IMG/VR virus record: IMGVR_UViG_2802428989_000001
Span: 1-64,000 of that record
Reading direction: 5' to 3' (one strand)
Length of the DNA stretch: 64,000 bases
From: a virus
This document shows positions 25,844 through 26,059 of the stretch, in pieces. The translations under genes were made by a program, and so were the position numbers. Each line of letters opens with the position of its first letter. The stretch's first letter is position 1. The notes under the pieces were generated by a model, which searched no databases, was not told the origin of the DNA, and saw only the letters and a list, made by a program, of their open reading frames with translations.

Positions 25844-26059
25844 CCCACGCGGGCATCGGAGGCTGGGGAGGGGAACCCCCTGGGGCCCCGGAAATCCCCG
25901 GTTGGCATAGGCGCTGGGGCTCCGCCTGGGTCTGGGCCTTTTCGACCCCAGCTGAAAACATGCAGAAAAACCGCAGTTCAGGCACTGTTTCGTGAGTGTT
26001 TCAGTGCCAGCCCTGACCGAAACGGTCGCGCGAAACGCGCACAGAAAGAGCAGGCACAC
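25844..26059. other. Candidate packaging/cos region.
   Basis: Non-coding 216 bp between the HNH and terminase small subunit genes. G/C runs 'GGCTGGGGAGGGGAACCCCCTGGGGCCCCGG'. 'ACTGTTTCGTGAGTGTTTCAGTG' at 25984-26006. Confidence 0.35.

Follow-up and report, generated by a model that had tools for sequence, protein, structure and literature searches.

In lambda, cosB (sites R1-R3 and an IHF site) lies between cosN and the small-subunit gene Nu1. Iteron sites at a distance from one another are known from P4 (ori/crr, alpha primase-helicase), R6K (gamma/alpha/beta, pi) and SPP1 (oriL/oriR, G38P), and the alpha protein of P4 has a C-terminal winged helix. In HK97, the type example of HNH-assisted cos cutting, the minimal site of the terminase small subunit (TerS) extends from +15 to +29 and contains one critical G plus an A-tract; the cohesive ends have a 3′ overhang of 10 nt, and cos cleavage is stimulated by the HNH protein (PMC11331095).

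The window, that is the whole stretch of 64,000 nt of viral DNA analysed here, matches Mycobacterium phage prophiFSAT01-1 (BK061308.1) at 100% identity. This prophage of Mycobacteroides abscessus belongs to cluster MabR; record coordinates minus 217 give the window coordinates used below. Prophages of this cluster are frequent in clinical M. abscessus, and neither their cos nor their origin had been described (cf. PMC9434293). The paper on the cluster defines the genome ends by attL and attR only, and a term search of its text for cos, terminase and iterons found none of them, the word 'origin' being used in its geographic sense only (PMC9434293).

A sequence-only reading had drawn attention to a gap of 216 bp between the HNH endonuclease gene and terS, as the expected place for cos and as the site of a motif shared with the putative origin. 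The size of the gap was confirmed, and every string quoted was found in place, among them ACTGTTTCGTGAGTGTTTCAGTG (25984-26006) and the origin string ACTGTTTCAGTGTTTCAG (19445-19462). The gap comprises three separate layers, a cos core, a TGTTTC doublet and two CGAAACG palindromes (Table 1). Taken as a whole, the view that it combines a cos region, with an ordinary HK97-style packaging site, an origin-type doublet serving as a remote initiator site, and late-leader palindromes has in our opinion an even chance of being right. What is unusual about it is the conserved origin-type doublet, placed at the start of the late operon; as a cos site the region is ordinary. An Rfam search gave no relevant family, promoter and terminator scans of both loci (the gap and the iteron cluster) yielded nothing useful, and the GC skew was uninformative.

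Table 1. Features of the cos region, the putative origin and the late-gene leaders in the window, followed by the iteron repeats of related helicase loci
Feature	Coordinates	Strand	Sequence and remarks
Helicase gene gp37	17783-19426	+	Pfam AAA_25 core plus modelled C-terminal winged helix; candidate iteron-binding initiator
Iteron cluster	19444-19600		Seven copies of the repeat, in both orientations, around palindrome TTCAGAAACCCTAAAGGGTTTCTGAA; putative origin
HNH endonuclease gene gp49	25535-25843	+	Annotated in BK061308.1; PHROG 333, E=3e-19; immediately upstream of cos
cos core, about 85 bp	25861-25945		G/C-run arm, predicted cut, GGGTCTGG box
G/C-run arm	25861-25891		GGCTGGGGAGGGGAACCCCCTGGGGCCCCGG; right-end side of predicted cut; CCCCC-T-GGGG palindrome at 25876-25885
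Predicted cos cleavage region	25896-25919		CCCCGGTTGGCAT/AGGCGCTGGGG (stroke, predicted cut); right end 25908, left end 25909
GGGTCTGG box plus T-tract	25925-25944	+	Box 25928-25935 (+20 to +27), T-tract 25939-25942 (+31 to +34); candidate TerS site
Inverted repeat	25981-26008		GGCACTG (25981-25987)...CAGTGCC (26002-26008); surrounds the doublet
Iteron-type doublet	25983-26005	+	CACTGTTTCGTG (25983-25994) and GAGTGTTTCAGT (25994-26005); core spacing 11 bp; +75 to +97 from predicted left end
Palindromes of the terS leader	26015-26040	+	GACCGaaaCGGTC (26015-26027) and GCGCGaaaCGCGC (26028-26040); 13 bp each, adjacent
TerS gene gp50	26060-26548	+	Pfam Terminase_7, E=1e-28
Late-leader palindromes	33805-33839	+	GCCCGaaaCGGGC and TGCGaaaCGCA-GGAG; upstream of scaffold gene (ATG 33852)
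Late-leader palindrome	37139-37151	+	GCCCGaaaCGGGT; 55 bp upstream of major tail protein gene
Iteron repeat, MabR (window)			GACTGTTTCA
Iteron repeat, L058			CAGTTTCCCGG
Iteron repeat, L059			CACTGTGCCACC
Iteron repeat, L060			GACCGTGCGGC
Iteron repeat, L056			GACTGGGCCA
Iteron repeat, L057			CCAGTGTGCCG
Iteron repeat, L065			GAGTGTTCCGG

The predicted cos core and the genomes that share it

The genes of prophiFSAT01-1 are arranged in the order HNH - cos - terS - terL, and its TerL is a member of a large actinobacteriophage family. In the Gordonia phages Kuwabara and Apricot and in Mycobacterium phage Cornie, HNH is the last gene and TerS the first, the TerS of Kuwabara and Cornie being 61% and 54% identical to that of prophiFSAT01-1. 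The distance from the genome end to terS is 49 bp in Kuwabara and 84 bp in Cornie, and ranges from 49 to 90 bp across these three phages and the IMG/VR contig L069.

The position of the cut is deduced from where the deposited records of relatives begin and end, four of these relatives having been sequenced from virions (Marvin, Kuwabara, Apricot and Cornie). In each of these four the GGGTCTGG box begins exactly at base 20 of the record. Since the box of prophiFSAT01-1 starts at 25928, its left end is expected at 25909 (25928 - 19 = 25909). The records of Kuwabara and Apricot end and begin at ...GTTAGGCAT/AGGTGCTG... (GGCAT/AGG), with AGGTGCTGCCGCCGAGTACGGGTCTGG as the left end, and that of Cornie at ...CCCGGCCCA/GGCTTCTCGGTTCGTGTACGGGTCTGG; the junction of prophiFSAT01-1 aligned to the record termini of its relatives reads ...CCCCGGTTGGCAT/AGGCGCTGGGGCTCCGCCTGGGTCTGG. 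Alignment with the ends of Kuwabara and Apricot also puts the left end at 25909, the same base as given by the box. From these termini we infer the exact cut, and cohesive ends are predicted in prophiFSAT01-1 at 25908/25909, probably with a 3′ overhang just left of 25909. A literature search found no published overhang sequences for Kuwabara, Cornie and Marvin.

The layout of this region and its conservation are directly observed. The G/C-run arm is kept in all five MabR genomes, McProf included, and L057, an island that has no terminase, carries it as well. Marvin, Kuwabara, Apricot, Cornie and many prophages have comparable G or C runs to the left of the cut, often containing a CCCCC(A/T)GGGGG palindrome. 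The G-runs noticed at 25861-25891 in the sequence-only reading are thus part of a conserved cos arm, common to the MabR genomes and their relatives. When the cos layout was compared across 42 prophage loci recovered with a TerS alignment, the succession of G/C arm, cut and box was recognized in about 12 of them, and also in contig L069. The box itself was found in about 12 of these 42 loci, in four of the five MabR genomes, in the four phages with deposited ends, in L057 and in L069. The core layout common to the four phages with deposited termini supports the expectation that the gap would hold cos.

In prophiFSQJ01-1 (L013:27040-27052), the most divergent member, the box reads ACCTCTGG and the cut-site sequence is intact; this could reflect an altered terminase specificity or a decaying cos.

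By analogy with the HK97 site at +15 to +29, the candidate box with its T-tract would likely be the docking site of the small terminase. According to this scheme, TerS would dock on the box and the T-tract at +20 to +34, and TerL would cut cos with the help of the HNH protein, as in HK97, the HNH endonuclease of which is gp74. The likeness to HK97 extends to the gene order, to a conserved box that sits at a constant +20, close inside the left end, with an A/T tract after it, and to relatives whose database records are linear and have this junction as their two termini. The two systems differ in several respects. The TerS of prophiFSAT01-1 belongs to Pfam Terminase_7 and has no sequence match to solved structures (PDB sequence searches with TerS and with the helicase returned no matches), the box is specific to actinobacteriophages, and the cos of this type in Marvin lies 11 kb from the terminase genes. 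In this phage (L061/L062, JF704100.1) the terminase genes are about 11 kb from the left end, the box is still at base 20 and the G-runs are at the right end; it follows that this type of cos works without an adjoining terS.

The similarity of the cos core ends at about +36 in three contexts, McProf, L057 and L069. In McProf, three reverse-strand genes are inserted right after ...GGGTCTGGCCTTTTTCGG. Because all three diverge at about +36, we delimit a mobile packaging signal at about 25861-25945; and because the shared core stops there, the TGTTTC doublet (+75 to +97) falls outside the packaging signal. The inserted genes of McProf (L012:25199-26802) encode two membrane proteins and one hypothetical protein; they start about 36 bp inside the predicted left end and stand in place of the doublet and of the first palindrome of the leader. 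McProf was reported to be incapable of plaque formation or DNA release.

In L057 (M. abscessus GCA_024390185.1, JAMLCF010000006.1), the cos core is located at L057:14200-14290, after a capsid gene, and reads GGGGCTGGGGAGG...CCCCGGATGGCATAGGCGCC...TACGGGTCTGGGGTTTCTC. The surrounding island (L057:8068-17994, roughly 10 kb with undefined boundaries) has no terminase; its genes encode a serine recombinase, an HK97-fold capsid protein, a TNT toxin and a gp37-like helicase, which is accompanied by iterons of its own. It looks like a cos-type phage satellite that would borrow the terminase of a MabR helper. To our knowledge, no satellite island of this kind has been described for mycobacteria.

The TGTTTC doublet and the iterons of the helicase family

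The iteron cluster starts directly after the stop codon of the helicase gene gp37. Homologues of gp37 with 45-57% identity are common in mycobacterial prophages, and the six readable homologue loci (L056, L057, L058, L059, L060 and L065) all carry 5-8 repeats directly after the helicase gene. Position and layout are the same throughout, and the repeat sequence differs in every helicase lineage examined (seven lineages, seven repeats; Table 1), a variation that is read directly from the loci; within MabR the iteron sequence is invariant. The central palindrome is kept in L058, with a TTAAA centre. P0004 is the most MabR-like of the distant relatives (57% helicase identity, same gene order), and a metagenome scan for gp37-family relatives yielded L065 only. 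The pattern of cluster and gp37 is that of an iteron origin and its putative initiator. The annotated gene gp38 (19423-19764, 113 aa) overlaps the whole cluster; its product has no Pfam or PHROG match, and the equivalent stretch is non-coding in L059 and L060 and holds only short unrelated ORFs in other relatives. The gene itself may be a misannotation.

The C-terminal 93 residues of gp37 were modelled with AlphaFold2 (pLDDT 80). The model shows four helices followed by a beta-hairpin wing, a winged-helix fold, and nearly all of the Foldseek matches listed at the top are winged-helix DNA-binding domains (among them MarR, PadR, Fur and ORC2), with probabilities of 0.9-1.0 and weak E-values (about 0.03-0.1). 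Homologues of gp37 that have different iterons also differ in the putative recognition helix. The immunity repressor is unlikely as the iteron-binding protein; the position weight matrix (PWM) of the iterons has no matches in the immunity region.

The doublet resembles these iterons beyond chance. The string ACTGTTTC occurs 8 times in the 64 kb, as compared with 1.35 expected, with six copies in 19445-19597 and one at 25984. With a PWM built from the seven iterons at 19444-19600 and scanned over the window, the best match outside the training sites was 25994 (17.5 bits); 25983 (11.9 bits) and 26016 were also among the top five of these matches. In 20,000 dinucleotide shuffles of the gap, two or more PWM matches were obtained in 4, three or more in none, and a match of at least 17.5 bits in 11. 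The match at 26016, on the minus strand, was discarded as an iteron; it falls in the CGAAACG palindromes, a different element. The sites are spaced by 11-12 bp within the doublet versus 8 and 14 bp at the origin. Single iteron-like sites were also seen inside coding sequence, at 20382-20393 (CACTGTTTCGAC, 16.3 bits) and 43577-43588 (GAGTGTTTCGAT, 15.7 bits), and FSIL01, FVLQ01 and McProf have a site at the position equivalent to the first.

The doublet is kept in FSIL01, FVLQ01, FSQJ01 and L071 while its flanks diverge. Compared with prophiFSQJ01-1, its two sites are identical at 10-11 of 12 positions and their flanks at 1-3 of 12; over the surrounding 40-60 bp, identity is no more than about 10-30%. 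Furthermore, the sites of FSQJ01 (GACTGTTTCAC and GAGTGTTTCAC) are nearer to the iteron consensus than those of prophiFSAT01-1, and so are the sites of FVLQ01. No doublet was found in McProf, L057, L069, Kuwabara or Cornie. The doublet could be functionless, either an origin scrap copied beside cos by illegitimate recombination in an ancestor of MabR or a chance match. Its restriction to one lineage, with no counterpart in other relatives of the helicase family, its loss from McProf in a 2-kb insertion, and the mosaic nature of phage genomes, the module junctions of which are often beside cos, would suit such a relic. However, the shuffles make a chance match unlikely, both sites are almost intact in FSQJ01 in spite of their degraded surroundings, and the sites nearer to the consensus in FSQJ01 and FVLQ01 point to purifying selection. 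We consider this explanation rather improbable.

The motif had also been described as embedded in an inverted repeat. The arms GGCACTG and CAGTGCC are indeed present in three genomes, but the stem is lost in FSQJ01, where the motif alone is conserved. The z-score of the RNA fold drops from -2.25 in prophiFSAT01-1 to -0.38 in FSQJ01. A conserved hairpin around the doublet was consequently rejected, and the inverted repeat is probably incidental.

We next consider whether the doublet is a recognition site of the small subunit, as had been suggested. It would be a cosB-like TerS site of the lambda R-site type, and the copies at 19.4 kb would be TerS sites as well or reused repeats. Like the repeats of lambda cosB, the short repeats of MabR stand between the cut and the small-subunit gene, and the two sites are one helical turn apart. 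McProf, which lacks the doublet, gave no particles (PMC8191103). Several observations argue against this assignment. The cos segment common to L057 and McProf ends at about +36 and leaves the doublet out; Kuwabara, Apricot, Cornie and L069 have homologous TerS and TerL and no such repeats; FVLQ01 and McProf share the same TerS N-terminal variant, but of the two FVLQ01 alone has the doublet; across lineages with unrelated terminases (L059, and L060 with a Terminase_4), iterons go with the helicase family; and the TerS site of HK97 is at +15 to +29 (PMC11331095). The MabR repeats differ from lambda cosB in matching the iterons of a replication origin, in lying outside the cos segment common to the terminase-less island, and in being missing from phages with a homologous TerS. 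The suggested role is therefore not borne out, and on these sequence comparisons a TerS site at the doublet appears distinctly unlikely. McProf is the only MabR member without the doublet and also the only one tested for lytic growth. Because it gave no plaques and no attP signal (PMC8191103), its loss of the doublet is no proof that the doublet is dispensable, and the doublet may yet have a role in packaging.

The doublet is most likely a remote helicase or initiator site, because iterons follow the helicase family and differ per lineage, and because a winged helix is predicted at the C-terminus of the helicase. That the iteron-binding protein would also bind the doublet is the most economical reading, held with moderate confidence; of the two suggestions made earlier, a common DNA-binding protein or reused repeats, the former is the one we favour. 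The doublet would be a pair of origin-type iterons outside the packaging signal, bound by the same protein as the seven iterons at 19444-19600, for which the C-terminal winged helix of gp37 is the best candidate. These protein-DNA contacts, like the role of the remote site, we infer. At the start of the late operon and 6.4 kb away from the origin, the site might act as a replication enhancer or an accessory origin, or might link replication with late expression or packaging.

This arrangement recalls P4, R6K and SPP1 in that the main iteron cluster of MabR adjoins the helicase gene and a few further copies of the iteron are found kilobases away; the modelled winged helix at the C-terminus of gp37 adds a likeness to P4 alpha. 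It differs in that the remote sites of MabR number only two, lie beside cos, and are absent in other lineages of the gp37 helicase family. The loci L059, L060 and L065, their terminase genes included, have no iteron copies near terS, and the remote site is for this reason regarded as a peculiarity of MabR, not a family trait. We know of no crr- or R6K-like remote-site arrangement described for actinobacteriophages. In its most specific form, our proposal would make the doublet a working gp37 site just inside the left end, which loops to the origin 6.4 kb away or loads the helicase, and which ties replication to the onset of late transcription or to packaging. Stated in such detail it is possible, if doubtful; were it true, the loss of the doublet could contribute to the failed lytic growth of McProf.

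Palindromes in the late-gene leaders

Perfect NNNCGAAACGNNN palindromes occur only three times on the + strand of the window, twice in the terS leader and once before the scaffold gene. Those of the terS leader fold as two mini-hairpins, the second of which is kept in McProf as GCGCGcaaCGCGC, and the scaffold-leader palindromes are conserved in FSQJ01 and McProf. Relatives have an analogous CCCG(A/C)CACGGG pair before terS and again before a scaffold-like gene about 4.4 kb downstream, where the second copy abuts the ribosome-binding site (L043:9954-9990 and 14505; L021:9956-9992 and 14413-14449). The leader palindromes are of the form NNCG-AAA-CGNN in the window and CCCG-ACA-CGGG in Streptomyces and other prophages, and they are often doubled, the last copy abutting the ribosome-binding site.

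Since the same palindromes recur before the scaffold and major-tail genes, the reverse GAAACG pair of the terS leader was rejected as a pair of inverted iterons, and the CGAAACG palindromes are classed as late-gene leader elements. They look like a common late-gene expression signal, possibly RNA mini-hairpins or sites of a late regulator, and would act in late-gene expression separately from cos and the iterons. Just upstream of the scaffold leader, the segment 33709-33776 contains a terminator-like hairpin (CCCCTAAC...GTTAGGGG followed by TTTTT) and then an 11-bp inverted repeat (ATGCCCGAATT / AATTCGGGCAT), an arrangement suggesting that the head genes are transcribed as a unit of their own.

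The position of the doublet at the head of the late operon, adjoining palindromes that are common to the scaffold and tail genes, raises the question whether it is itself a late-operon control element, either a site of another phage regulator (such as gp13 or gp44, both HTH proteins), which would act at the 19.4-kb cluster as well, or an RNA hairpin in the terS leader. The fold z-score of the GGCACTG/CAGTGCC stem in prophiFSAT01-1 would fit the hairpin, but the hairpin is not kept in FSQJ01. Moreover, a scan found no sigma-70-like promoter, the leaders of the scaffold and tail genes lack the TGTTTC motif, and the 19.4-kb layout, conserved across the helicase family with lineage-specific repeats, fits an origin better than a set of operators. 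Control of the late operon through the doublet, together with an action of the same regulator at 19.4 kb, is in our view unlikely.

Implications for MabR prophages and their annotation

The predicted cos (25908/25909, core 25861-25945) offers targets for phage engineering and for shuttle or cosmid-type vectors, and the putative origin (19444-19600) a target for replication studies. Repeats beside cos should not automatically be annotated as terminase sites. The presence of a MabR cos core in a terminase-less island points to satellite-helper relationships in M. abscessus. Finally, should the doublet truly act as a remote site of the initiator, replication and late functions would be coupled through it in a temperate mycobacteriophage.
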